Positions 3,646 to 54,209 of a stretch of DNA of 64,000 nt are shown here, piece after piece (positions within the stretch are counted from its first letter, which is position 1; every line of letters starts with the position of its first letter). The notes under the pieces were generated by a model. The model was not told the origin of the DNA. It did not search any database and saw only the letters and a list, made by a program, of their open reading frames with translations. Location of the stretch: IMG/VR virus record IMGVR_UViG_3300045988_146577; one strand, given 5' to 3'. The position numbers and the translations under genes were made by a program. Source of the DNA: a virus (Duplodnaviria; Heunggongvirae; Uroviricota; Caudoviricetes).

Positions 3646-3700
3646 CCTGCTTCCGTATATATTTAATAAGTTACTTATTATTTATATATACAGAAGCAGG
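3646..3700. repeat. 55-bp AT-rich imperfect palindrome (copy 1)
   Basis: CCTGCTTCCGTATATATTTAATAAGTTACTTATTATTTATATATACAGAAGCAGG; near-identical copy at 35258-35312. Confidence 0.6.
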
Positions 3701-31650: not shown

Positions 31651-33225
31651 TCACTCGTTCTCTTGAGTAGATGAGTCCCCATTCCCTCGGGGTTGATCTT
31701 GCCCGCTTTCTTGGGCTGCGCCTTGATCATAAGTAAGTACTGACTTATTTTCAAGAGTATTTAGATCATTTTTTGGCGGAAAATTCAAGAGATCTTTATC
31801 AAATTCCTTCTTCATCGCCTCAGTGATGTTCGGGAAAATCTTCTCAATCAGCATTTCCATCTGGTGACGACGTACAGAGTCCGGTGCCTGAAGTAACGAC
31901 AGTTTCTCGGCAACAGAAAATTCATCAGTAAGGCCACGAATATCGAAACTTTCTGGATACGCAATTAATGAGTGGTCTTCGTCCAGATCTACCCCCATCC
32001 ATTTCGCAACCAGTAGCATGATTTGGCGTTCAGCCCTTTCCAGACGCTCTGCTTTTGTGACAAGCAAGCTATTTACACGCTGGAAGTCATACATTTTTGC
32101 GGCACCAGATGAGTTATCGATTCCCTGTGCGTTGTCCTGCTTCGTTCGCTCACCAGCTACACCAACTGAATGGTAGATTTCGTTAATCACCGTCTTAATC
32201 GTAGTGATGATCATCTGAGCTTGTTTCGGGTCTGGTGACAGATAAAACGGCTGGTTTCCACCTTCAGAATCGTAGGTGAAGACTCGCTTTGTGCCCATTT
32301 CAAGCACTTTAGTGTGGTTTTCATCACCAGGTAAAAGCGACTGTACCGGTATAGCCAACTGGCTAAATGTCTGATCCTGAATAATGGCATCAAGGTTTGA
32401 CAGATAGTTTGCAACCGCACGATCAAGATAAGCGATATCATCGATCAACGATGGGCTGAAATACGGTGATTCACTTTCTCCAATACAATCAACAGGAAAC
32501 ACAGGAACTACGCCGAGATTATGCTCACCGCTATCCTCTAAAATAACTTTTGCCTGACGGCGACCTGCTCCACCAGCGCCCTTCTTCACTTCCTCACGGA
32601 ACAGATACCACTCGTTTTGTGTCCACAGACGATAACGTTGGTATTCCTGACCTGTAGAAGTAAAAGGATCTGCGTCATCACGAGCGACTTCCACAATTAA
32701 CGCCCACAACATATTCCCGTCGTCGTCCCATGCCACATCCAGCATTTGCTGAGGTGAAATCCAGTAGGCGTAGGCGCGAGCATCTTTCTTTTTCTCGTCA
32801 GCTACTGACTCAACATCACCACTCATCGTGCTATCGACAACAACCCATATGCGACCGTAAATAGACGACTGCAAATCAATAGCGGCCATAAATGAGTCAA
32901 TAGAGGCATTCTGGCGAGTCGCACGTTTCCAGAAATTGCGGATCTGCTCTGGTGCCTCTTCGATATTTCTATGAATGTCTTCTTTAAAGAGATATTTGTT
33001 GATGAGGTTTACCACCTCACGAGTGTGGTTGAAGCGATAAGCACGCTCAACTCGCTCCTTAAACTCCTGATCTCCCTCTTTAAAGTAACGAAAGATATTG
33101 TCTGTAAACCAACCACGCCCGCCAGCGTAAGTGCTGGCGAGGAAGTCCCAATGTTCTTTTTTCTTTTCGTATTCCGGGTGGCGTCGCGCCACCAGATCCT
33201 TAATTTGTTTGTCGTTCAATTCCAT
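31651..33225 (-). CDS. portal protein
   Basis: 524 aa immediately downstream of large terminase; acidic C-terminus. Confidence 0.75.
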   Translation of the reverse strand: MELNDKQIKDLVARRHPEYEKKKEHWDFLASTYAGGRGWFTDNIFRYFKEGDQEFKERVERAYRFNHTREVVNLINKYLFKEDIHRNIEEAPEQIRNFWKRATRQNASIDSFMAAIDLQSSIYGRIWVVVDSTMSGDVESVADEKKKDARAYAYWISPQQMLDVAWDDDGNMLWALIVEVARDDADPFTSTGQEYQRYRLWTQNEWYLFREEVKKGAGGAGRRQAKVILEDSGEHNLGVVPVFPVDCIGESESPYFSPSLIDDIAYLDRAVANYLSNLDAIIQDQTFSQLAIPVQSLLPGDENHTKVLEMGTKRVFTYDSEGGNQPFYLSPDPKQAQMIITTIKTVINEIYHSVGVAGERTKQDNAQGIDNSSGAAKMYDFQRVNSLLVTKAERLERAERQIMLLVAKWMGVDLDEDHSLIAYPESFDIRGLTDEFSVAEKLSLLQAPDSVRRHQMEMLIEKIFPNITEAMKKEFDKDLLNFPPKNDLNTLENKSVLTYDQGAAQESGQDQPRGNGDSSTQENE

Positions 33226-33236
33226 TTGAATAACCT

Positions 33237-33255
33237 TAGATAATTACTTACCTAT
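33237..33255 (-). promoter_or_regulatory. class-2 palindrome between terL and portal
   Basis: TAGATAATTACTTACCTAT overlapping terL stop, 12 nt from portal start. Confidence 0.45.
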
Positions 33256-34508
33256 CGAGAGCCACCAAGAATAACACGGTTTTTGACTGGATACCTACGA
33301 TGTACTGGATAGCCCAATGCGTCTGCACTATGCTCAATGCCACCTGTCTTATCCATATCTCGTGTTCCAGGCTTGTAGATGACTTTTTCCAGTGAATCAA
33401 TCAAATGCTTGCACTTCGGATCGATATACAGCCGGATATCTCCAGATGCGGTCATCAGCATTCGGTTAACAGCATTAACACGATCCGCAATTGGCGGGTG
33501 CTTTTTCGAATAATCGACACGTAAGAATCCCTTCTCTTTGAATATGTCGACGTCAGACTCCCCGCGAGCATGTTGGCGATAAGCACCTGCCGGATCTGGA
33601 AATACCGTTATCTGTGATTTCCAGCGCCAGAAGCGTCTCTCAAGCTCATCACAAACCTCTGCCGTGTTAGAGGAAAAGAGCACCAATTCATCAATTGCCC
33701 ATAGCTCACCATTTGGCTGAGGTTGCAAAATTACTGAAGACATCGGGTCAATGTTGAAGTCCTGCCCTACCCATATAGGCAACCGAGGGTTGAACTGAAG
33801 CGGTTTTACATGCACGTTACGATCGAACGGGTAGTAAACGCGCCCGGACATGTTCTCAAAGCTCGCCAGGTACTCCTGAGCGAACGATTTCGGGTCCATA
33901 TCGTTCTTAGCAGCTTCAATTTCCGCCGTAGGTACAAACGGAGAATCGGCAGTTACAAACTGCCAGCTCTTCCACTGTCCCTTTCTTTGCAGCTCTACGT
34001 TCTGGCCTATAGTCCACAGTTTGTGAAATTCCGAGAAGCCTTTTGGCGTACCAATGATCAGTGCACCGCCGCGTGTCGATGAAAGAGTAGGTCGTAACAC
34101 CTTGTACCAGGTGTCAGCCTTCATATCCTGAAATTCATCAAGCACTACAAAATGCAACGCTACGCCGCGCAGAGTGTCAGGCTTATCAGCACCTTTGAGG
34201 GCGATCTCCGAACCGTTCTTCAACACGATTGTCATCGTGGTGTCGTTCTTTCTCCTAACCCACTTACGAGGCAGAACTTCCTGTAGATCGTCCCACAAAA
34301 TCTGGCGAGCCATCTGGTAAGTAGGAGCGACATACCAGACCCTTTGCTTTTTTTCCTTTGCCGCCGCACGAATAATAGTGGAGATCGACAACCGGGATTT
34401 TCCCCAGCGTCGACCAGCACAAACAACTTTAAATCGATGCGGAGACTGGAAGACTTTCATCTGTCCAGAATGCAGTTGCACAAGACTGAGCGAGGACGGG
34501 ATTGCCAT
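33252..34508 (-). CDS. terminase large subunit
   Basis: Walker A-like GRRWGKS, Walker B-like FVVLDEF, C-terminal nuclease-like acidic residues; 418 aa. Confidence 0.85.
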   Translation of the reverse strand: MAIPSSLSLVQLHSGQMKVFQSPHRFKVVCAGRRWGKSRLSISTIIRAAAKEKKQRVWYVAPTYQMARQILWDDLQEVLPRKWVRRKNDTTMTIVLKNGSEIALKGADKPDTLRGVALHFVVLDEFQDMKADTWYKVLRPTLSSTRGGALIIGTPKGFSEFHKLWTIGQNVELQRKGQWKSWQFVTADSPFVPTAEIEAAKNDMDPKSFAQEYLASFENMSGRVYYPFDRNVHVKPLQFNPRLPIWVGQDFNIDPMSSVILQPQPNGELWAIDELVLFSSNTAEVCDELERRFWRWKSQITVFPDPAGAYRQHARGESDVDIFKEKGFLRVDYSKKHPPIADRVNAVNRMLMTASGDIRLYIDPKCKHLIDSLEKVIYKPGTRDMDKTGGIEHSADALGYPVHRRYPVKNRVILGGSR

Positions 34509-35140
34509 TATTCGTCCTCCCCTTCACTTCCATCATCTGTCGCATCAAATTCGCTTAGAGCTTCTTCTTCCAACGTCTCAAGCAATTCGTCATCGATGAT
34601 TTCAGGCTCGTCGTCTTCCTGACGTAATTTCGCCACCTGGGAAGGCGTAAGCTCACCAAATACCAGGTTCGGAATTTCTTCCTCGTCATTTTCCGCATGA
34701 TCCATGCCCAATGCTTTGGACGAAACTTCAAAGCATTTTGCAAGGGTATTACTGGCTCTCTGTAAGCTCTTGAGAGAATCCTCAATCGCCCCTAAAGGCT
34801 TACCCTCACGTTTGGCCGTAGTGACTTCGACCATCACCATCTGCCCCAACGCATACGCCCAGCCGTCATAACGTGTACGACGTTCTTCTATCTTTTCCGC
34901 ACGGGCTTTAGCGCGAAGCTCTGCGTCAGATTTAAGAGACTCACGAACCATCTTCCCAACAGAGTCCGCGCCTTTCTCTAATCCTCGCTTTTTGAAATGT
35001 CTGGAGAGTGTTTCACGACGAATGCCGTACTCTTCCTCCAGCTTTGAGAGTGTATATTCGCCTGACGTCCATTTGGCTTCAGCTTCGGCCCACTCCGCTG
35101 GTGTCAGGCGAGTTTTTACCTCGTCTTTTTCGACCGTCAT
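34508..35140 (-). CDS. terminase small subunit
   Basis: N-terminal HTH (TLSKLEEEYGIRRETLSRHF), acidic C-terminus, stop overlaps terL start. Confidence 0.6.
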   Translation of the reverse strand: MTVEKDEVKTRLTPAEWAEAEAKWTSGEYTLSKLEEEYGIRRETLSRHFKKRGLEKGADSVGKMVRESLKSDAELRAKARAEKIEERRTRYDGWAYALGQMVMVEVTTAKREGKPLGAIEDSLKSLQRASNTLAKCFEVSSKALGMDHAENDEEEIPNLVFGELTPSQVAKLRQEDDEPEIIDDELLETLEEEALSEFDATDDGSEGEDE

Positions 35141-35205
35141 AGATCCCTCTAAAACACACAGAGCGCGTCCATGCGCTCTAAAACAACTTGTTTACTGCAT
35201 CTTCT

Positions 35206-35221
35206 AACCAACTTGTTTTCT
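35206..35221 (-). promoter_or_regulatory. class-1 palindrome upstream of terminase small subunit
   Basis: AACCAACTTGTTTTCT; degenerate second copy at about 35181-35196. Confidence 0.45.
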
Positions 35222-35257
35222 GGGGTGTTTAATTAGGTCTGGGCATGTCTTACTAAG

Positions 35258-35312
35258 CCTGCTTCCGTATATATTTAATAAGTTACTTATTATTTATATA
35301 TACAGATGCAGG
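35258..35312. repeat. 55-bp AT-rich imperfect palindrome (copy 2)
   Basis: Same sequence as 3646-3700 with one substitution; about 120 bp upstream of terminase small subunit. Confidence 0.6.
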
Positions 35313-35336
35313 TCTTTAAATAAGCTCCCAGACCGA

Positions 35337-35603
35337 TTACATCACCAGTAACTTCGCTTTGGCTCGACCTAAAGTGGTTAACCCAAGAGTTCGGCGGTGA
35401 TAGCGATTGTCACTGCGTTGGCGCGTATGCCCTTTCTCCACCAGCCCCTTTTTTATCAGAGCGCGAATTGAGAACTGGATACTTTGCTTGGTTGTCTTGT
35501 ACGGCAAAACTTCAAGCAATTCGTCCAGATCAAGTAGATGACCTCGCTCATAACCGAGATTGAGCGTTTTGATGATGTCCTTTTGTTTATCGGTTAACGT
35601 CAT
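35337..35603 (-). CDS. small winged-helix DNA-binding protein (candidate transcription regulator)
   Basis: 88 aa, basic, helix-turn-helix-like segment; first gene upstream of terminase operon. Confidence 0.45.
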   Translation of the reverse strand: MTLTDKQKDIIKTLNLGYERGHLLDLDELLEVLPYKTTKQSIQFSIRALIKKGLVEKGHTRQRSDNRYHRRTLGLTTLGRAKAKLLVM

Positions 35604-35612
35604 GGCAAATCC

Positions 35613-36503
35613 TTATGCCGGTAAAGCAATTTCTAACGGTTTATCCAAAGGTTGTTTGTCGAATGCCAGCAGTGGCAGCGTGTCAGGCAGTCGACGGCCA
35701 AAGTCAGGGTTTCGGTACACACCATACAACGGAGACGTAAAGCTCAGGTTGTGAATGTCCTTGAGCAGCTTCACAATGCTGGCCTCGTCCACCAGACTGT
35801 CGGCAATGTCCTGAATCGTCGTGCCACGATTCCGCCCAGCTTTTGCCAGGGAACTGTTCTTGTGGTAGTCCGCCACCAGATCACGCAATGCACGGCGACG
35901 ACGAGACTCGCTCATTGCGAACAACTCTTTGACGATCGCCTCGTTATCACCCGGGTCGGAACGGAAATGGCGCTGGAATACACGCAGTGCACTTTCATAG
36001 CTCTTCGGTCGCTCAGGGCGGATGAACTTAAACCCTGCTTTCATGGCGAAGGGATTGTATTTGCTCATCGAGGACTGGATCTCAATGATTGGCCGGTCAT
36101 GCATCCTGCTAACCAGGTTAATCATTCGATAAGAGACGCCTACGCCACGATACTGAGTATCCACAACTGAGCGACTGATCACCGCAAAGTTGTTATTCAC
36201 GTACCGACCCCAGTACTGGTTAGCCACGGTGGTATTAGTGGTTGGTTTCAACTTAGGAAACATGCGGTGGCGAGGTGCCAACAGTAGTTTCGGGTAAGCC
36301 ATAACCACGACGCCCACCAGACGGTCATCAAGTTCGCAGCGATAGTAAGTTGGCGCGAAAGGTTTGCCGTCTGTTTTGTAGTGAAGCGACTTAAGAGCGT
36401 GCCAGTCCTCTACAGTTCCCTTTGTGACAGTCATTCGCTCCAGAAAGTCCAGATGACGCGGAAACTCTTCAGGGCGGTAGCGTTTAATGATGATGTCCGT
36501 CAT
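35613..36503 (-). CDS. hypothetical protein with GNAT-like motif
   Basis: VISRSVVDTQYRGVGVSYRMINLV resembles GNAT motif A; otherwise unassigned. Confidence 0.3.
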   Translation of the reverse strand: MTDIIIKRYRPEEFPRHLDFLERMTVTKGTVEDWHALKSLHYKTDGKPFAPTYYRCELDDRLVGVVVMAYPKLLLAPRHRMFPKLKPTTNTTVANQYWGRYVNNNFAVISRSVVDTQYRGVGVSYRMINLVSRMHDRPIIEIQSSMSKYNPFAMKAGFKFIRPERPKSYESALRVFQRHFRSDPGDNEAIVKELFAMSESRRRRALRDLVADYHKNSSLAKAGRNRGTTIQDIADSLVDEASIVKLLKDIHNLSFTSPLYGVYRNPDFGRRLPDTLPLLAFDKQPLDKPLEIALPA

Positions 36504-37165
36504 AAATGAACCTCATCATGACTACCATTGTGATATTCCACCTTCACGCGTTCTTTGTAGTGCTTGGTGATCTGCATATCCGGGCGCAGCGCGTTCTTCA
36601 GGTCTTCGTGAGTCGTCGCCACCATTACCGTTGCACCAACCTTTCGAGCGGCACGCTGGAGGTTAGATGCCACAACCTGAGCGGTTACACGGTCTAGAAC
36701 AGCACCGAACTCGTCAGCAGCCCACACTTTAGCGCCTGACTCAATCAGTTTGGCAATCTTGAGACGATATTTCTGACCGTCTGACATTTCAGAAGGCTTG
36801 CGAACAAACAGATATGCATCGTTCAGACCAGCCATAGATAACAACCCAAGCGCATCGCTGGTCGTTTTGCCCAACTGATCGATGACGTTAACCTCATTAT
36901 CGAAGGTAAAATCATCGATGGAGGCTACAGACAGCCCTTCATCCTTCATCTGTCGTTGCAACTCGCGCAGCACAACGGATTTGCCGGAACCGGATTGGCC
37001 GGTGATGTACACCACATCGCCCTGCTTCACTTCCAGCTCCAGATTGTCGTAAAGCGTCCACTCTTTTTCGTCCAGGCCAAGCCCGAACGACTCAGCGATT
37101 TCCAACGTGCGAGTGGTTTTATTTACGCGTGTCTGAAACGATACGTTGATGATGTATTTGCTCAT
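36500..37165 (-). CDS. ABC-type ATPase (stand-alone nucleotide-binding domain)
   Basis: Walker A GQSGSGKS, signature-like MSDGQKYRL, Walker B VWAADEFGA, H-loop TTHEDL. Confidence 0.65.
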   Translation of the reverse strand: MSKYIINVSFQTRVNKTTRTLEIAESFGLGLDEKEWTLYDNLELEVKQGDVVYITGQSGSGKSVVLRELQRQMKDEGLSVASIDDFTFDNEVNVIDQLGKTTSDALGLLSMAGLNDAYLFVRKPSEMSDGQKYRLKIAKLIESGAKVWAADEFGAVLDRVTAQVVASNLQRAARKVGATVMVATTHEDLKNALRPDMQITKHYKERVKVEYHNGSHDEVHL

Positions 37166-37863
37166 GCAGCCATCTCCCCGGAAGAGATCTTCTCCGCATA
37201 TGCCACAAATGCGTCTACCCCGCTTTCTCCCGTCATTTCTTCCATGTGGGCAAGCAAATCACCAACAACAATGGCAGAGCCAGCAGGGAGCGTTTTAAAG
37301 CCCAATACGTCGACAACACGTACTTCTTCCGCTGCAACTTCACGACTGATCTCGGTGTGTTCATCCTTCTGTCGTTTAGTTTCTTCGCCAAGATCGATAA
37401 CTAGCGAGTCGGTGTCCATTTCTTCTGTCATGCTGCCAACGAGAACATTCAACTCACGCTCTTCAAAGCCGAAAACCTCGATATCGTCCAGAACAAGCGA
37501 CTCAAGCTCTTTCTGTAGCTTAATTGCATCGTAATCAATGCTGGCAAGTCGGTTATCTTCAAGGCGCTTCGCACGAACCTCGTCATCACTGAGATCATCG
37601 CGAACAATAACCGGTACGCGCTCAAGTCCAGCAAAAATTGCAGCCTCACGGCGGCCGTGGCCAGTAATAATTACGTCGTTCTTATCGACCGTAATTGGCT
37701 GGTCAAATCCGCGCTTTTTAATGGCTGCGGCCAGATCTCGGATCTGCTGTTCATCATGCTTTTTGGCATTCATCTCATAGGGAATAAGATCTGCCGGGTC
37801 GCGATATACGATTTCAAACTTTTTGGTCATTACATACGCTCCTTGTAGTAGTCGACCAGCCAC
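37162..37863 (-). CDS. ParB-like nuclease-domain protein
   Basis: ParB/Srx N-domain motif VIITGHGRREAAIFAGLERVPV; acidic C-terminus. Confidence 0.65.
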   Translation of the reverse strand: MAGRLLQGAYVMTKKFEIVYRDPADLIPYEMNAKKHDEQQIRDLAAAIKKRGFDQPITVDKNDVIITGHGRREAAIFAGLERVPVIVRDDLSDDEVRAKRLEDNRLASIDYDAIKLQKELESLVLDDIEVFGFEERELNVLVGSMTEEMDTDSLVIDLGEETKRQKDEHTEISREVAAEEVRVVDVLGFKTLPAGSAIVVGDLLAHMEEMTGESGVDAFVAYAEKISSGEMAA

Positions 37864-38528
37864 ACCAGAGCCTCACCAGCGTTCTCCATTTCATTACCGG
37901 TGTTAATAGCCTGCTCTTTGATGATGTTTTTTATGGTTTCTGCAACACGATCTGACGCATCGAAAGTTACTTTGAAGCGCATGGTCTGATGTTCCGCACC
38001 CACACGTTCGGTTTTCTCTCGTTTGTCGGTATCGACAGGCTCATCACTACCACGAGACAACGCCTCCAGTGCTTCAAGGTCGATTGCCGCCTCTTTTGCT
38101 AAAACCATCGAGATTTCGTCGTCATACGGGGCGATTTCAGACAGTTGATAGTCAAGTTCTGACTGAATTTCTTCAATGAAGCGTTGCAATGCGATTTGGT
38201 CGTCTTCACCGTATCGCTCGTTGTCCACCAGTGACATCTGTTTAGCTACGACATCGCTAATTTTGCCCACAGAAAGCACCGGAACCGTTGAAATTCCTTG
38301 CTCAATAGCAGCACGCCAGCGATGTTCGCCGCCGAGGATTTCAAAAAATCCATCTTCAAGTTCACGAGCCAAAATTGGCTTAAAAAAGCCCAATTTTTCG
38401 ATAGAACCTTTCAGTTTTTCAAAATTCTGCGCACCAACCGAATTGGTGTTCCAGGTATTCGGGCGAAGGTTGGCAACATCAACCTGCAAAATCGTGATTT
38501 TTACATCCATTTTATTGCTACAATCCAC
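37830..38528 (-). CDS. ParB-like nuclease-domain protein (second paralog)
   Basis: ParB/Srx N-domain motif FEILGGEHRWRAAIEQGISTVPV; GTG start per ORF track. Confidence 0.65.
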   Translation of the reverse strand: MDCSNKMDVKITILQVDVANLRPNTWNTNSVGAQNFEKLKGSIEKLGFFKPILARELEDGFFEILGGEHRWRAAIEQGISTVPVLSVGKISDVVAKQMSLVDNERYGEDDQIALQRFIEEIQSELDYQLSEIAPYDDEISMVLAKEAAIDLEALEALSRGSDEPVDTDKREKTERVGAEHQTMRFKVTFDASDRVAETIKNIIKEQAINTGNEMENAGEALVWLVDYYKERM

Positions 38529-38548
38529 TAAGTAATCACTTACTTATT
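38528..38548. promoter_or_regulatory. class-2 palindrome in divergent region between ParB-like gene and helicase
   Basis: CTAAGTAATCACTTACTTATT adjacent to TATAAT hexamer (38548-38553). Confidence 0.45.
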
Positions 38549-38592
38549 ATAATAGCCAAATAACATACAAAAGGCACTAAGGAAAGAGGTTT

Positions 38593-40152
38593 ATGACTGT
38601 TCGGATTGTATCTAACGCAGTTAATGCGCTTATTTCTGGCGCAGATGACAAGGTAAAGCAAATGGTGCAACAGATGTTGAGCTACGAAGTCGAGACTGGC
38701 GACTGGAAGGGCACAAGCACGATGTTCAACTGGAGTAAAAACTCGTTCCCTGCTGGCTTTGCCAAGCCTGTAGCGGCGAACTTGAACAAGGCGGGCATAA
38801 AATGTGTTCATATCCGCAAAGACAAAGCCCCGGCGCTTGGTAAACCAAATCCGGCGGTTAACCCATTCCCATGCAATCCTGATTATGCGTATCAGGATCA
38901 GACTGTGGAAACACTAGTTCGAGAGGGAATGATGATTGCGCAGATCGCTACTGGTGGCGGGAAATCTAATGTTGCCTGCAAAGCAGCTGCACGTATCGGT
39001 CGAATGACATTATTTTTAACAACCCGCTCTGTTCTGATGTTTCAGATGGCCGAAAACTTCCAGAGATCCATCGACTACCGCGCCGAAAATGGCGAACCGT
39101 GGTTAAAAGACCAAAAGGTTGGAGTCATTGGCTCGGGTGAGTTCCAGGTATCACGACATATCAACGTCGCTACAGTTCAAACTCTTGCAAGTTTCCTCGA
39201 AGAACCACCACGCGATGCAACACCAGATAAGAAAAGCTTCCACCTCAAACGTCGGGAGTTGGTGAAACGCTTCCTTTCAAGTGTCTCTCTTCTTATTCTG
39301 GAAGAGGCGCATGAGTCTTCAGGCTCAAATTTCTATGACATTGCCAGATTATGTGTGAACGCAGACTATCGTCTGGCACTTACGGCCACGCCGTTCATGA
39401 AGGATTCTACAGAAGCCAACATGCGTCTGATGGCTGTGGCTGGGCGAATTGAAATCAAAGTCACAGAAAAGTACCTGATTGATCGAGGCATTCTGGCAAA
39501 ACCGTACTTCCTTTATCATAAAGTTGCCTACAAGCCAGACGAGGTCAGAATAAAGGCGGAACTTGCCAACAAACACCTCAATTTTAGAGTTGGTATGAGC
39601 ACCGCCTACCAAAAGGCTTATCAGTTGGGGATCGTGTATAATTTGGGACGTAACGAGGCCATTGTGCGCGAAGCATTGCTCTATAAGCAACATTCTCTCA
39701 ATTGTATGACTCTGGTTCGTCTTAAACGCCACGGGCAAATCCTGATGGAAATGATGAAAGAGTCCGGCCTTAGAGTTGACTTCATTTATGGGGAATCGAA
39801 CCAGTCGACAAGGCAAGCAAAGCTGAACAGTTTAGCGTCTGGTGAAATAGATGTTTTAATAGGCTCGACTATTCTGGATGTTGGTGTTGATGTGCCAAGC
39901 GTTGGTGCGGTCATTCTTGCTGGTGGTGGGAAAGCAGAAGTTGAAATGAGACAGCGTGTCGGTCGTGGCTTACGAGCCAAGAAGAATCAGGCAAACGTGT
40001 GTTTTATCACTGATTTCATTGACATTAGCAACAAATACCTGTTGTCTCACTCTTATGAGCGAAAACACATCATCGACACCACACCTGGCTTTGCAGAAGG
40101 TGTATTGCCTATTGATGGCGCATTCGATTTTGGAGTTCTGAAACGAGATTAG
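38593..40152 (+). CDS. SF2 (DEAH-like) helicase
   Basis: Motif I ATGGGKS, motif II LILEEAHE, motif III TATP, motif VI QRVGRGLR; AAGGAAAGAGG RBS. Confidence 0.8.
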   Translation: MTVRIVSNAVNALISGADDKVKQMVQQMLSYEVETGDWKGTSTMFNWSKNSFPAGFAKPVAANLNKAGIKCVHIRKDKAPALGKPNPAVNPFPCNPDYAYQDQTVETLVREGMMIAQIATGGGKSNVACKAAARIGRMTLFLTTRSVLMFQMAENFQRSIDYRAENGEPWLKDQKVGVIGSGEFQVSRHINVATVQTLASFLEEPPRDATPDKKSFHLKRRELVKRFLSSVSLLILEEAHESSGSNFYDIARLCVNADYRLALTATPFMKDSTEANMRLMAVAGRIEIKVTEKYLIDRGILAKPYFLYHKVAYKPDEVRIKAELANKHLNFRVGMSTAYQKAYQLGIVYNLGRNEAIVREALLYKQHSLNCMTLVRLKRHGQILMEMMKESGLRVDFIYGESNQSTRQAKLNSLASGEIDVLIGSTILDVGVDVPSVGAVILAGGGKAEVEMRQRVGRGLRAKKNQANVCFITDFIDISNKYLLSHSYERKHIIDTTPGFAEGVLPIDGAFDFGVLKRD

Positions 40153-40154
40153 TT

Positions 40155-40433
40155 ATGAGCGAAAAGAAAACAACTTATTGCCAAGTGGCATTGTCTGATA
40201 AGGCCAATGAAAAACTTGGAAAATTCCAAATAAAACTCAAAGAGAAAAAAATCAAGATGTCTAAGGCTGAAGTTATCAATGCCATTCTGGAGACGATGAC
40301 TATGGCTGAATTTGACAAAGTCACATCTGCCGTTGGGGTTTCCGCTAAGACGCGTGAGAAAATCATGCGCATCTATGAAAACTCCAATATGACAAAAAAA
40401 GATCTAGAGGAAATACTGAGCAGGTTGCCGTAA
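40155..40433 (+). CDS. hypothetical protein (92 aa)
   Basis: ATG 2 nt after helicase stop. Confidence 0.4.
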   Translation: MSEKKTTYCQVALSDKANEKLGKFQIKLKEKKIKMSKAEVINAILETMTMAEFDKVTSAVGVSAKTREKIMRIYENSNMTKKDLEEILSRLP

Positions 40434-50917: not shown

Positions 50918-52951
50918 TTACTTAACCTGGTGGCCAGGTTTAGCACCAGCATCCGGGCTTAACAGGAAGATATCTTTCCCACCGGGGCCAGCAGCCATCA
51001 CCATACCTTCGGAGATACCGAAGCGCATTTTACGCGGAGCCAGGTTAGCCACCATAATGGTGTGACGACCAATCAGTGCCTGTGGGTCTGGATAAGCAGA
51101 ACGGATGCCTGAGAAGACATTGCGTTTTTCACCACCTAGATCCAGCGTCAGACGCAGCAGTTTGTCAGAGCCTTCAACAAACTCCGCGTTTTCAATCAGC
51201 GCCACGCGCAGGTCAACTTTGGCGAAGTCATCAAAGGTGATGGTTTCCTGAATCGGATCGTCTGCCAGCGGGCCAGTAACTGGCGCGGCAGTGGCTTTCA
51301 CTTCTTCTTTAGAGGCTTCCACCAGTGCTTCAACCTGCTTCATGTCGATGCGGTTATACAGTGCTTTGAACGGATTAACTTTGTGCGCCAGCAGCGGTTG
51401 CTGGATGCCATCCCAGGTCAGTTCCGTATTGAGGAATGCTTCTGCACGCTCGGTCAGTTTCGGCAGTACCGGCTTCAGGTAAGTCATCAGCACGCGGAAC
51501 AGGTTGATGCCCATTGAGCAAATTGCCTGCAGGTCGGCATCGCGGCCTTCCTGTTTCGCCACCACCCACGGAGCCTGTTCATCGACATAGCGGTTAGCCA
51601 GGTCAGCCAATGCCATGATTTCACGGATAGCTTTACCAAATTCACGGCTTTCCCATGCTTCGCCAATCACTTCAGCGGCATCAGTAAAGGTTTTGTACAG
51701 TTGCGGGTCAGCCAGTTCGCTTGCCAGCACGCCGTCAAAACGCTTGTTGATAAAGCCTGCATTACGAGAGGCCAGGTTAACCACTTTGTTCACGATATCG
51801 GCATTCACGCGCTGAACGAAATCCTCCAGGTTGAGATCGATATCATCAATGCGCGAAGAGAGTTTCGCAGTGTAGTAGTAACGCAGGCTGTCAGCGTCAA
51901 AATGATTCAGCCAGGTGCTGGCTTTAATAAAGGTGCCGCGAGACTTGGACATCTTTGCGCCGTTCACCGTCACATAGCCATGAACAAACAGGTTGGTCGG
52001 CTTGCGGAAGTTGCTGCCTTCCAGCATGGCAGGCCAGAACAGGCTGTGGAAGTAAACAATATCTTTACCGATGAAGTGGTACAGCTCGGCGGTGGAGTCT
52101 TTCTTCCAGTATTCATCGAAGCTTACGCTGTCGCCGCGCTTGTCGCACAGATTCTTGAAAGAACCCATGTAGCCAATCGGTGCGTCCAGCCAGACGTAGA
52201 AATATTTGCCCGGCGCGTTCGGAATTTCAAAACCGAAGTAAGGCGCATCGCGGGAGATATCCCACTGTTGCAGGCCGGATTCAAACCATTCCTGCATTTT
52301 GTTCGCCACCTGCTCCTGCAACGCGCCGCTGCGGGTCCATGCCTGCAACATTTCGCTGAAAGAAGGCAGATCAAAGAAGAAGTGTTCGGAATCACGCATT
52401 ACCGGGGTAGCGCCAGAAACCACCGATTTCGGCTCGATCAATTCAGTCGGGCTATATGTTGCGCCGCAGACTTCACAGTTATCGCCGTATTGATCTGGCG
52501 CTTTACATTTCGGGCAGGTGCCTTTCACAAAACGATCCGGCAGGAACATGCCTTTTTCCGGGTCGTACAACTGAGAGATAGTGCGGTTTTTAATAAAACC
52601 GTTCTCTTTCAGGCGAGTATAGATAAGCTCAGACAGCTGGCGGTTCTCTTCGCTGTGCGTCGAGTGATAGTTGTCATAGCTGATGTTAAAGCCTGCGAAA
52701 TCAGTCTGGTGTTCCTGACTCATTTCGCCAATCATCTGCTCCGGAGTGATACCAAGCTGCTGAGCTTTCAGCATGATCGGCGTACCGTGGGCATCGTCGG
52801 CACAGATGAAATTAACCTCGTGGCCGCGCATTCGCTGGTAACGAACCCAGACATCAGCCTGGATGTGCTCCAGCATATGGCCGAGGTGGATTGAGCCGTT
52901 AGCGTACGGCAGCGCGCACGTCACCAGAATTTTCTTCGCGACTTGGGTCAT
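50918..52951 (-). CDS. metG: methionyl-tRNA synthetase
   Basis: 677 aa; class I HIGH (GSIHLGH) and KMSKS motifs; Zn knuckle CPKC...CEVC; C-terminal tRNA-binding domain; start at MTQVAKK (track ORF extends 43 codons upstream). Confidence 0.95.
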
Positions 52952-53108
52952 AGTAGGCATTACTTCTTTGTAGTGAAAAGGGGCTTGATAGTAACAAAAT
53001 GGCCTTATGTCTGCCATGTGATAACAGCATTTCTCATAAATGATTAAATGTCGTAGCTGGAGTACACTACAAGGCGACAATTGCGCAAATTAAAATAAAG
53101 GAGACGGG

Positions 53109-54209
53109 ATGAGCGAGTCCAAATCGCCGGATGCCCTGAGAGCAATGGTAGCCGGTACGCTGGCTAATTTTCAGCACCCAACCCTGAAACACAACCTGAC
53201 TACGCTTAAAGCGTTACACCATGTTGCGTTGATGGATGACACACTGCATGTCGAACTAATCATGCCTTTCGTGTGGAATAAGCCTTTTGAAGACCTGAAA
53301 GAGCAATGTAGTGGTGATCTGCTCCGTATCACTGGCGCAAAGGCTATTGACTGGAAGCTGTCGTACAACATTGCCACGCTTAAGCGCGTCAAAAACCAAC
53401 CAGGCATTAATGGCGTTAAGAACATTATCGCCGTCAGCTCAGGCAAGGGCGGCGTGGGTAAATCCTCCACGGCGGTAAACCTGGCACTGGCGTTGGCTGC
53501 TGAAGGTGCGAAAGTTGGTATTTTGGATGCCGATATCTATGGTCCATCAATTCCAACCATGCTGGGCGCGGAAAACCAACGTCCAACCTCACCTGACGGT
53601 ACTCACATGGCACCTATCATGTCTCATGGCCTGGCAACCAACTCTATTGGTTATCTGGTCACCGACGACAATGCAATGGTGTGGCGTGGACCGATGGCCA
53701 GCAAGGCGCTGATGCAGATGTTGCAGGAAACTCTATGGCCTGATCTGGACTATCTCGTTCTCGATATGCCGCCGGGCACTGGTGATATTCAGTTGACGCT
53801 GGCGCAGAACATTCCTGTAACTGGTGCGGTTGTGGTAACTACGCCGCAAGACATCGCGCTGATCGATGCGAAGAAAGGCATTGTGATGTTCGAAAAAGTC
53901 GAAGTGCCGGTACTGGGTATCGTCGAAAACATGAGTGTGCATATTTGCAGTAACTGCGGTCATCACGAGCCAATTTTTGGCACCGGTGGCGCACAGAAAC
54001 TGGCCGAGAAATACAACACGCAGTTGTTAGGCCAAATGCCTCTTCATATCTCTCTTCGTGAAGATCTGGATAACGGAACACCAACCGTTATTAGTCGTCC
54101 AGATAGTGAATTTACGGCTATTTATCGTGACCTCGCAGATCGCGTTGCTGCCCAAATGTATTGGCAAGGTGAAGTAATACCTGGCGAAATCGCATTCCGC
54201 GCAGTGTGA
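53109..54209 (+). CDS. apbC: Fe-S cluster carrier ATPase ApbC/Mrp
   Basis: Deviant Walker A SGKGGVGKSS, CxxC (CSNCGHH); AAGGAG RBS; divergent from metG as in enterobacterial chromosomes. Confidence 0.9.
   Translation: MSESKSPDALRAMVAGTLANFQHPTLKHNLTTLKALHHVALMDDTLHVELIMPFVWNKPFEDLKEQCSGDLLRITGAKAIDWKLSYNIATLKRVKNQPGINGVKNIIAVSSGKGGVGKSSTAVNLALALAAEGAKVGILDADIYGPSIPTMLGAENQRPTSPDGTHMAPIMSHGLATNSIGYLVTDDNAMVWRGPMASKALMQMLQETLWPDLDYLVLDMPPGTGDIQLTLAQNIPVTGAVVVTTPQDIALIDAKKGIVMFEKVEVPVLGIVENMSVHICSNCGHHEPIFGTGGAQKLAEKYNTQLLGQMPLHISLREDLDNGTPTVISRPDSEFTAIYRDLADRVAAQMYWQGEVIPGEIAFRAV

Follow-up and report, generated by a model that had tools for sequence, protein, structure and literature searches.

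In several described phage systems a ParB-like protein works together with an enzyme that modifies DNA. ParB-like proteins that lack a DNA-binding domain activate phage DNA thymine dioxygenases (5mYOX; PMC13229309), and DpdB is a ParB-like ATPase that drives DpdA (PMC12839542); in both systems the enzyme requires the ParB-fold protein for its action on DNA. Binding of GTP is described for a fusion of ParB with an acetyltransferase (PMC12704722), and phages and plasmids also encode ParB-DNA methyltransferase fusions (phrog_498, MTase_II) that typically lie ahead of the terminase genes. ParB-assisted DNA-modifying enzymes are by now an established idea. Here we describe a five-gene cluster in the virus record IMGVR_UViG_3300045988_146577, whose analysed stretch of 64,000 nucleotides (nt) we call the window. 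In this cluster two ParB-like genes (ParB1 and ParB2) are followed by genes for an ABC-type ATPase, a GNAT-fold acyltransferase and a small winged helix-turn-helix (wHTH) protein. As in the 5mYOX and DpdA systems, ParB/Srx proteins in which no helix-turn-helix (HTH) was detected stand beside an enzyme in a phage context, whereas here the enzyme is a GNAT with an ABC ATPase of its own rather than a dioxygenase or transglycosylase, and there are two ParB paralogues. The N-terminal module of the methyltransferase fusions is homologous to ParB2 over ~150 residues, and more weakly to ParB1, and the fusions hold the same position as the cluster; in contrast to them, ParB2 has no methyltransferase domain and its partner enzyme is the GNAT.

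For the ATPase and the GNAT the closest relatives are the COG2401-type ABC-acetyltransferase fusions (MK0520-like; PHROGs 293, 886 and 11143), which consist of the same ATPase and the same GNAT. Although these protein families are already catalogued by name, we found no study in the literature, the paper on Leptospira phage LE4 included, that addresses the function of the COG2401-type family or of a module of ParB, ABC and GNAT proteins. Two other enzymes are relevant for comparison. In TmcA/NAT10, the tRNA/rRNA cytidine N4-acetyltransferase, a P-loop NTPase is likewise followed by a GNAT, and acetyl is transferred from acetyl-CoA to a nucleic-acid base in an ATP-dependent manner, but the ATPase is a RecD-like helicase domain and not an ABC domain, there is no sequence homology, and no ParB partner exists. 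The window proteins do not belong to TmcA/NAT10, which combines that RecD-like ATPase with a GNAT and a tRNA-binding domain; nevertheless TmcA was the only PDB entry that aligned over both domains of a modelled fused ABC-GNAT protein, at the level of a domain fit with a global TM-score of 0.22. The second enzyme, Mom of phage Mu, is a GNAT that acts on double-stranded DNA (dsDNA) and has an essential helical insertion (PMC13219725). Mom modifies adenine in DNA using Gly-tRNA, and needs neither an ATPase nor a ParB protein. It reportedly does not use acetyl-CoA as donor. The window GNAT keeps the R-x-x-G loop and has no specific sequence similarity to Mom; Mom was found among the structural matches, a generic GNAT similarity that gives no evidence of membership.

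Both halves of the window pair are specifically homologous to the fused ABC-GNAT (COG2401-like) family. A hidden Markov model built solely from the ATPases of the SSU5 clade, to which the window belongs (see below), matched the N-terminal domains of fused proteins at E-values of 1e-40 to 1e-82; the GNAT profile matched fused proteins at up to 1e-27, and hhalign gave E-values of 4e-5 to LE4 gp15 and 1e-4 to gp2 of Gordonia phage Axumite. The motifs of the fused proteins are near-identical to those of the two window proteins (common to both are GxSGSGKS, SDGQKYR, DEF..LDR, ATTH; W..L..HY, RGxG, E.., YNPF). By these criteria of homology, the ATPase and GNAT genes of the window are a split form of the fusion family, divided into two overlapping genes and accompanied by two ParB genes and a wHTH gene. 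The family is large: searched against 1.84 billion representative proteins, the GNAT-family profile found 904 clusters at 50% identity (E<=1e-3), and in about half of the best 150 family representatives, which are proteins of ~450-500 amino acids (aa), the ATPase precedes the GNAT as N-terminal domain. The fused protein was predicted to be one compact unit (pLDDT 91, pTM 0.87). An earlier sequence-only reading of the window had called the locus an unusual cluster, overlooking the split COG2401-type family, the ParB fusions to that family and the GNAT as likely effector. The cluster is not a one-off but the split, two-ParB version of a widespread, conserved phage module that lacks functional study.

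The association with ParB proteins recurs elsewhere in the family. ParB-ABC-GNAT triple fusions are represented by P0227, P0193, P0217 and P0221 (our numbers for representative proteins) and by one IMG/VR gene (L201; L numbers are our loci), and there are seven cases in which a ParB gene lies directly upstream of ABC-GNAT: LE4, Axumite, Rhodococcus phage Jace, Arthrobacter phage EastWest, Oenococcus phage unk162 (where ABC and GNAT are split again), Pseudoalteromonas SL25 (as unannotated open reading frames, ORFs) and the metagenomic locus L129. Other partners recur as well. A family B DNA polymerase is fused to ABC-GNAT (PolB-ABC-GNAT, 1260 aa) within a replication module on more than 24 contigs of an uncultured phage lineage (L124/L125 8001-11783). 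In Enterococcus phage 9184 (L123 1857-5373) ABC and GNAT are separate genes directly behind that of a polymerase, and the GNAT part is annotated as 'DNA polymerase'. An ASCH (PUA-like) gene was the immediate neighbour three times, and TerL adjoins many members (see below). Every recurrent partner is a DNA-handling protein. In the window itself, ParB1 and ParB2 overlap by 1 nt, ParB2 and the ATPase gene by 4 nt, and the ATPase and GNAT genes by 4 nt, while 9 nt separate the GNAT gene from the wHTH gene; with these boundaries the five genes have the layout of one translationally coupled operon. As the fusions and the coupled genes show, the two ParB proteins, the ATPase and the GNAT belong to one functional unit, tied to DNA-handling genes.

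The module is also strictly conserved in its surroundings. An IMG/VR scan with the GNAT profile returned only close relatives (80-100% identity), and diverse loci were taken from a species-level genome scan and a search of representative proteins. Contigs with distant homologues (GNAT ~44% identity) carry the same arrangement, as do Pseudomonas phage nickie, Rhizobium phage RHEph10 and Xanthomonas phage JGB6, and a scan of one genome per species yielded 28 further loci. Conservation of gene order in related phages had been set beforehand as the test of the sequence-only reading, and the order of a helicase on the opposite strand (-), then ParB1, ParB2, ABC, GNAT, (the small wHTH), TerS, TerL and portal was kept in all 33 of 33 diverse loci, scored where the genes fall inside the locus, from gamma-, alpha- and beta-proteobacterial hosts. 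This is far more conservation than expected by chance, and the loci differ only in that 0-3 small unrelated ORFs may be inserted between ABC and GNAT or between the ParB genes. Between distant loci, amino acid identity is 52-64% for the ATPase, exactly as for TerL (52-64%), compared with 44-57% for portal, 36-45% for the GNAT and 31-44% for ParB1 and ParB2. The packaging block downstream (31651..35140, minus strand, defined by synteny and by matches to phrog_867, Terminase_6N/6C, phrog_2 and phrog_10250) is always linked to the module. In the SSU5/nickie clade the module is therefore a core gene set, vertically co-inherited with the packaging genes, and not an accessory island, since synteny is strict, divergence matches that of TerL and no presence/absence variation was seen.

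Such inheritance bears on two alternatives that would place the module in the arms race between phages and their hosts. One is that it is an embedded anti-phage defence or superinfection exclusion system, as the sequence-only reading had suggested by likening it to the ATPase-plus-nuclease pairs OLD, Gabija, PARIS and Septu. Pairs of an ATPase and an effector are indeed common defence architectures, and a scan with PADLOC-DB v2 gave partial matches only: weak ones of the ATPase P-loop to mad3 and mad8 and of the helicase core to PbeA, besides those of the ATPase P-loop to PtuA and of the ParB N-domain to MTase_II. Those of the ATPase and helicase, however, cover only generic P-loop or helicase cores, the GNAT had no match in that database, and no system-level match was obtained, on which ground we rejected a defence system. 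Moreover, the cluster is fixed in the core genome, and the module is found in lytic phages (LE3/LE4, PMC6078989) as well as in integrated prophages. Defence is thus hardly credible, and the likeness to the four named systems is not supported. The same reading's preference for DNA processing tied to packaging over defence, by contrast, gains support from the co-inheritance with TerS, TerL and portal at matching divergence, and from fused relatives that adjoin terminase genes in unrelated phages.

The other alternative is counter-defence or host takeover, in which a ParB-targeted GNAT would acylate and inactivate a DNA-bound host factor, for example a nucleoid protein, a repair nuclease or a complex that serves restriction or defence. 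GNATs by which phages inactivate defence proteins are known, AcrVA5 being reported to acetylate Cas12a (PMC9114340). A 2025 survey of ParB-fold proteins suggests anti-defence roles for phage ParB fusions (PMC12704722), and many temperate elements carry the module. Nevertheless, genes of this kind are usually variable and host-specific, whereas the module is vertically conserved, is found in phages of hosts from Leptospira to Gordonia and diverges at the rate of TerL within the SSU5 clade; the PolB fusions would also be hard to account for. We consider this explanation quite unlikely.

Turning to the individual proteins, both ParBs belong to the ParB/Srx superfamily, scoring above the Pfam gathering cut-off for PF02195 (26.3 bits) with 49.9 bits for ParB1 (E 3e-13; phrog_723, E 2e-79) and 35.0 bits for ParB2 (E 1.5e-8; phrog_930, E 1e-112), and both have the GxxR of Box II. 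They are paralogues, as the sequence-only reading had held (33% identity over 116 aa, E 6e-10). Its description of them as 'ParB-like nuclease-domain' proteins stands for the fold but not for the activity: 'nuclease' is a historical label of the ParB/Srx NTP-binding fold, and we found no nuclease evidence for either protein. Box motifs were read from alignments to solved ParB, Spo0J and Noc structures. Box II of ParB1, GGEHRWRAA, aligns to GERRxRAA of Spo0J/ParB, and G60, G61, H63 and R64 are invariant in 27 orthologues; the Asn and Arg of Box III are kept. In ParB2 the corresponding motif is GHGRREAA, with an invariant GHGR aligned to GERR, and the phosphate-binding Arg is kept, so that the key Arg of Box II is invariant in both proteins. 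Of the residues that serve the CTPase switch of ParB proteins, this Arg and the Asn of Box III are retained. Which nucleoside triphosphate (NTP) a ParB-fold protein prefers is not predictable from sequence (PMC12704722). Over residues 12-165 ParB2 is similar to the N-terminal region of phrog_498 'DNA methyltransferase' (E 5e-32) and to MTase_II of PADLOC (E 3e-17), and it is of the subtype that forms the N-terminal module of the phage ParB-DNA methyltransferase fusions.

One might suppose that the ParBs bind a centromere and that the ABC ATPase stands in for ParA in plasmid partition. The window represents a low-copy plasmid of ~108 kb, the annotation of its close relative Escherichia phage Cyrano lists no ParA/ParB partition pair, and the palindromes described below could act as centromere-like sites. 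With canonical ParABS, Noc and KorB proteins the window ParBs have in common the N-terminal NTP-binding fold and a partly kept Box II and Box III. However, they are not canonical partition ParBs: scores for TIGR00180 are 43.0 and 43.3 against a cut-off of 58.45, neither protein has a Pfam HTH match, no ParA-binding motif was detected in them, and no ParA gene is present in the window or the Cyrano annotation. In addition, the genes are on the late/packaging side of the genome, the module occurs in the lytic phages and integrated prophages mentioned above, and the GNAT would be left without a function. Partition, which the sequence-only reading had also raised, is accordingly not supported and very improbable.

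The ABC ATPase scores 50.1 bits for PF00005 (cut-off 25) and has every ABC motif, with Walker A (GQSGSGKS), signature (SDGQ), Walker B (DEFGAVLD) and H-loop (ATTH) invariant in 28 orthologues; here the sequence-only reading was right both in its motif calls and in noting that coiled-coil inserts are absent. Most records label the protein an ABC transporter, a candidate that we rejected: there is no permease partner, NCBIfam transporter equivalogs all score far below their cut-offs, and no membrane protein is encoded in the operon or across the 33 syntenic loci. The GNAT has the fold and the beta4-alpha3 acyl-CoA pyrophosphate-binding loop (Q/R-x-x-G-x-G/A) of its superfamily, together with a ~90-residue helical insertion ahead of the final strand, while comparison of its sequence with the PDB gave only noise (for example AlkD at E ~1). 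No variation occurs in the loop residues R119-x-x-G122 or in a group of residues that are likely catalytic. The active-site motifs of the module are under strong constraint, and the likely effector enzyme is the GNAT rather than a nuclease.

Terminase genes adjoin the module in two independent arrangements. It lies just upstream of them in the SSU5 clade, LE4, Axumite, SL25 and L129, whereas in a separate clade of ~480-aa fusions the fused gene comes right after TerL in at least 36 of 71 loci, the stop of the one overlapping the start of the other, and no ParB gene was found within 6 kb. This adjacency, and the palindrome and repeats located between module and TerS in the window, would fit a packaging accessory in which the ParBs mark the packaging start and the ABC-GNAT adjusts how packaging starts or ends, by acetylating TerS, TerL, portal or a head protein or by regulating one of them in another way. 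On the other hand, the PolB fusions and the placement in replication modules point to replication, and the members in Nonlabens P12024S, Jace and EastWest are far from any terminase gene. We also know of no characterised packaging system that needs a GNAT or an ABC ATPase. A pure packaging accessory is therefore unlikely, if less so than the explanations discussed so far.

Our preferred interpretation, which we offer tentatively, is that NTP-gated ParBs and an ATP-driven ABC-GNAT machine acylate phage DNA, or a protein bound to it, around the time of packaging. The ParB paralogues, probably as a heterodimer, would bind nucleotide and thereby engage phage DNA or activate their partner, much as ParB-like proteins do for DpdA, the phage thymine dioxygenases and, in cis, the ParB-methyltransferase fusions. 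The ABC ATPase would dimerise on ATP and drive the bound GNAT subunits, and these would transfer an acyl group to a base of phage DNA or to a protein bound to that DNA, at a late stage of infection that immediately precedes or coincides with packaging. Acyl-CoA is the most likely donor, since the pyrophosphate loop is kept. The closest architectural analogy is TmcA/NAT10, and the example of Mom shows that a GNAT can modify dsDNA.

Several observations weigh against this interpretation. Many fused family members have no ParB gene nearby, and hence ParB is not obligatory. Box I, the base-reading motif, has diverged in both ParBs, and the Glu for hydrolysis, kept in ParB1, is replaced by His in ParB2. 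The ATPase resembles transporter-type nucleotide-binding domains (the closest solved folds to the fused ABC-GNAT model are HrtA, MacB, FtsE and YbbA) and not the DNA-clamping ABC proteins Rad50, SMC, UvrA and MutS. Many unrelated genes gather immediately ahead of the terminase genes in phages, which makes terminase adjacency weaker evidence than fusion. No modified base in SSU5-like phages is reported in the literature that we searched, and the choice between DNA and protein as acceptor rests on association only.

The more specific proposal, possible but somewhat more doubtful, is a new class of DNA hypermodification, in which an ATP-dependent, ParB-targeted acyl-CoA transferase acylates the exocyclic amine of a DNA base. 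By analogy to TmcA the product might be, for example, N4-acyl-cytosine, installed after or during replication and before packaging, and shielding the genome from host nucleases. Acylation of DNA would account for the fusions with ParB and with PolB, for the link to terminase genes and for the repeated presence of ASCH neighbours (as readers of acyl-cytidine or another modified base). If so, acylation would be a new chemistry, and the ABC ATPase a new motor, for ParB-like proteins that steer DNA-modifying enzymes, and large 'hypothetical' families (PHROGs 293, 886, 723, 930 and 900; ~900 clusters at 50% identity) would obtain a function. The module genes ride on phage-plasmids of major pathogens, and such modification would extend to SSU5-like elements of Yersinia pestis, Salmonella Typhi, Klebsiella and E. 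coli. Even with a protein as target, the module would stand out as an unusual enzyme complex, conserved and linked to genome packaging. The hypothesis is directly testable in cultured phages (SSU5, Cyrano, nickie, LE4 and the Gordonia phages).

Table 1. Features of the five-gene cluster and its neighbours (positions in the window)
Feature	Position	Strand	Basis or remark
ParB1, ParB/Srx N-domain protein, 226-232 aa	37830..38528	-	operon gene 1; PF02195, phrog_723
ParB2, paralogous ParB/Srx N-domain protein, 222 aa	37162..37830	-	PF02195, phrog_930
ABC-type ATPase, 221 aa	36500..37165	-	PF00005
GNAT-fold acyltransferase, 296 aa	35613..36503	-	GNAT fold, acyl-CoA loop
Small winged-helix protein (wHTH), 88 aa	35337..35603	-	operon's final gene; phrog_900 E 2e-45
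Superfamily 2 (SF2) helicase, XPB/Rad25/UvsW-like, 519 aa	38593..40152	+	ResIII, DEAD, Helicase_C
ParB1/helicase divergent intergenic region, 64 bp	38529..38592	.	TATAAT, partial palindrome core
wHTH/TerS intergenic region, 196 bp	35141..35336	.	palindrome, direct repeat, hairpin
TerS-like DNA-binding protein	34508-35140	-	phrog_867 E 2e-100
TerL	33252-34508	-	Terminase_6N/6C, phrog_2
Portal	31651-33225	-	phrog_10250

The sequence-only reading had called five minus-strand genes with overlapping or abutting boundaries and a divergent helicase gene, and all six ORFs were confirmed at the coordinates of Table 1, in the 5'->3' order ParB1, ParB2, ABC ATPase, GNAT, wHTH. Its gene models needed correction only at starts: that of ParB2 is most likely ATG 37830 (222 aa) rather than GTG 37863, and ParB1 may begin at GTG 38528 or, following the Cyrano annotation, at ATG 38510. 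The cluster sits between the helicase and TerS-TerL-portal. The helicase (PF04851 54.6 bits, PF00270 53.7 bits, PF00271 50.1 bits) has ResIII/DEAD and Helicase_C domains and a DExH motif II, EEAH, which place it among the XPB/Rad25/UvsW-like SF2 helicases; its closest solved relatives are XPB/Rad25 (XPBII, 1e-12) and UvsW of T4 (3.5e-8). It is present and divergent in 32 of the 32 loci that reach that far, and is syntenic throughout the SSU5/nickie clade, but outside that clade it is not linked to the module. The wHTH protein has weak matches to LexA_DNA_bind and to the Lrs14 and Sta1 winged helices. By BLAST a small ORF occupies its position in 21 of the 33 diverse loci, and the protein is a lineage-specific companion and possibly a regulator.

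The intergenic regions contain several repeats. An AT-rich near-palindrome of ~55 bp, CCTGCTTCCGTATATATTTAATAAGT-T-ACTTATTATTTATATATACAGA[A/T]GCAGG, occurs twice in the window, at 35258-35312 and 3646-3700, each copy ~135-145 nt upstream of a gene start (TerS ATG 35140 on the minus strand and GTG 3806 on the plus strand), and the two copies bracket the entire virion gene block. The GenBank records of Cyrano and SSU5 were both opened within this palindrome. A partial copy of its core (TAATCACTTACTTATTAT, 38533-38550) is found together with a TATAAT in the ParB1/helicase intergenic region, and is backed by an exact 11-mer, TTACTTATTAT (repeats D17/I6 there). Possible roles for the palindrome are those of an operator, an element of a late promoter, a loading site for ParB or a site connected with packaging. 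Its core is exact in the closest relatives only; at the corresponding position RHEph10 has an inverted repeat unrelated to it and the remaining loci have none, and we rejected the palindrome upstream of TerS as a clade-conserved feature of the module. A direct repeat, AAACAAGTTG(G/T)TT, is present at 35180 and 35205, with a third copy at 40167, and a terminator-like GC-rich hairpin (35180-35159, minus strand; window 35159-35217) lies ~20 nt before the TerS ribosome-binding site. Because of this hairpin, the five genes may constitute a transcription unit that is separate from the terminase operon or regulated ahead of it, and the layout suggests that read-through from the one operon into the other is regulated.

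These elements raise the alternative of a regulatory module, in which KorB-like ParBs and the wHTH protein would control late or early transcription from the flanking intergenic regions, modulated by the ABC-GNAT. There is a motif common to both flanking regions, and the hairpin before TerS would be in keeping with such control. A precedent exists in KorB, cited in PMC13229309 as a ParB-family regulator of transcription that depends on cytidine triphosphate (CTP), and ParB2 has a weak match to KorB (E 0.037). In a regulator, however, there would be no need for the ABC ATPase or the active site of the GNAT to be invariant. The shared motif is kept only in the closest relatives, and no HTH was detected in either ParB. 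We regard a purely regulatory role as improbable.

As to the element itself, the region shares 99.5% identity with Cyrano and 83% with Salmonella phage SSU5, and on the basis of these identities the window represents an SSU5-like phage-plasmid of ~108 kb. The five-gene cluster is present in 772 PLSDB plasmids, among them 307 from Klebsiella, 218 from Escherichia, 91 from Enterobacter, 62 from Yersinia and 49 from Salmonella, and everywhere its genes are annotated as hypothetical, ParB-like or ABC proteins. In Cyrano the GNAT gene bears the name 'ABC-type ATPase fused to a predicted acetyltransferase domain'. The part of Cyrano beyond the window (33000-80000) is annotated with RepA, HicAB, an integrase, the DNA polymerase III (Pol III) alpha subunit, ribonucleotide reductase (RNR), ThyX and a Dam-like methyltransferase, and an 'ASCH' protein is annotated beside RepA. 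CYRAN_75, called an 'ABC transporter' in that record, was considered as a paralogue of the cluster ATPase and ruled out, being a kinase-like AAA_28 P-loop protein.

Some members of the wider family have features of their own. P0164 (847 aa) contains an intein with a LAGLIDADG homing endonuclease inside the ATPase domain of an ABC-GNAT protein; inteins are usually found in highly conserved proteins of DNA metabolism. One family member has a C-terminal TFIIB repeat. Among the IMG/VR loci L130-L209, the fused ABC-GNAT is in many provirus contigs the last gene, with TerL just upstream and the contig ending exactly at the stop codon, whereas L127 continues beyond it with host metabolic genes on the opposite strand; ABC-GNAT may thus mark one prophage edge, or the pattern may come from trimming of proviruses at gene boundaries. 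In Axumite a formyltransferase-like gene, annotated as a tRNA methyltransferase, lies between ABC-GNAT and the terminase gene (L009 1805-2452), and in Jace a gene annotated as aspartate decarboxylase follows ABC-GNAT (L010 6101-6526). These two genes could encode accessory enzymes for the donor or the modification.

Finally, at 50918-54209 of the window the phage-plasmid has metG, a complete gene for methionyl-tRNA synthetase (720 aa), with an adjoining apbC/mrp gene. This stretch is only 80-95% identical to most E. coli chromosomes; both genes are also present in Cyrano and in ~108-kb E. coli plasmids, and most of the stretch was found in 47 of 5426 complete genomes. In phage nickie, genes for tRNA-Met and tRNA-Asn lie ~200 nt past the 3' end of the helicase gene (L005 1267-1428). 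Set beside the aminoacyl-tRNA donor of Mom, the tRNAs of nickie and the metG of the E. coli element are probably a coincidence.

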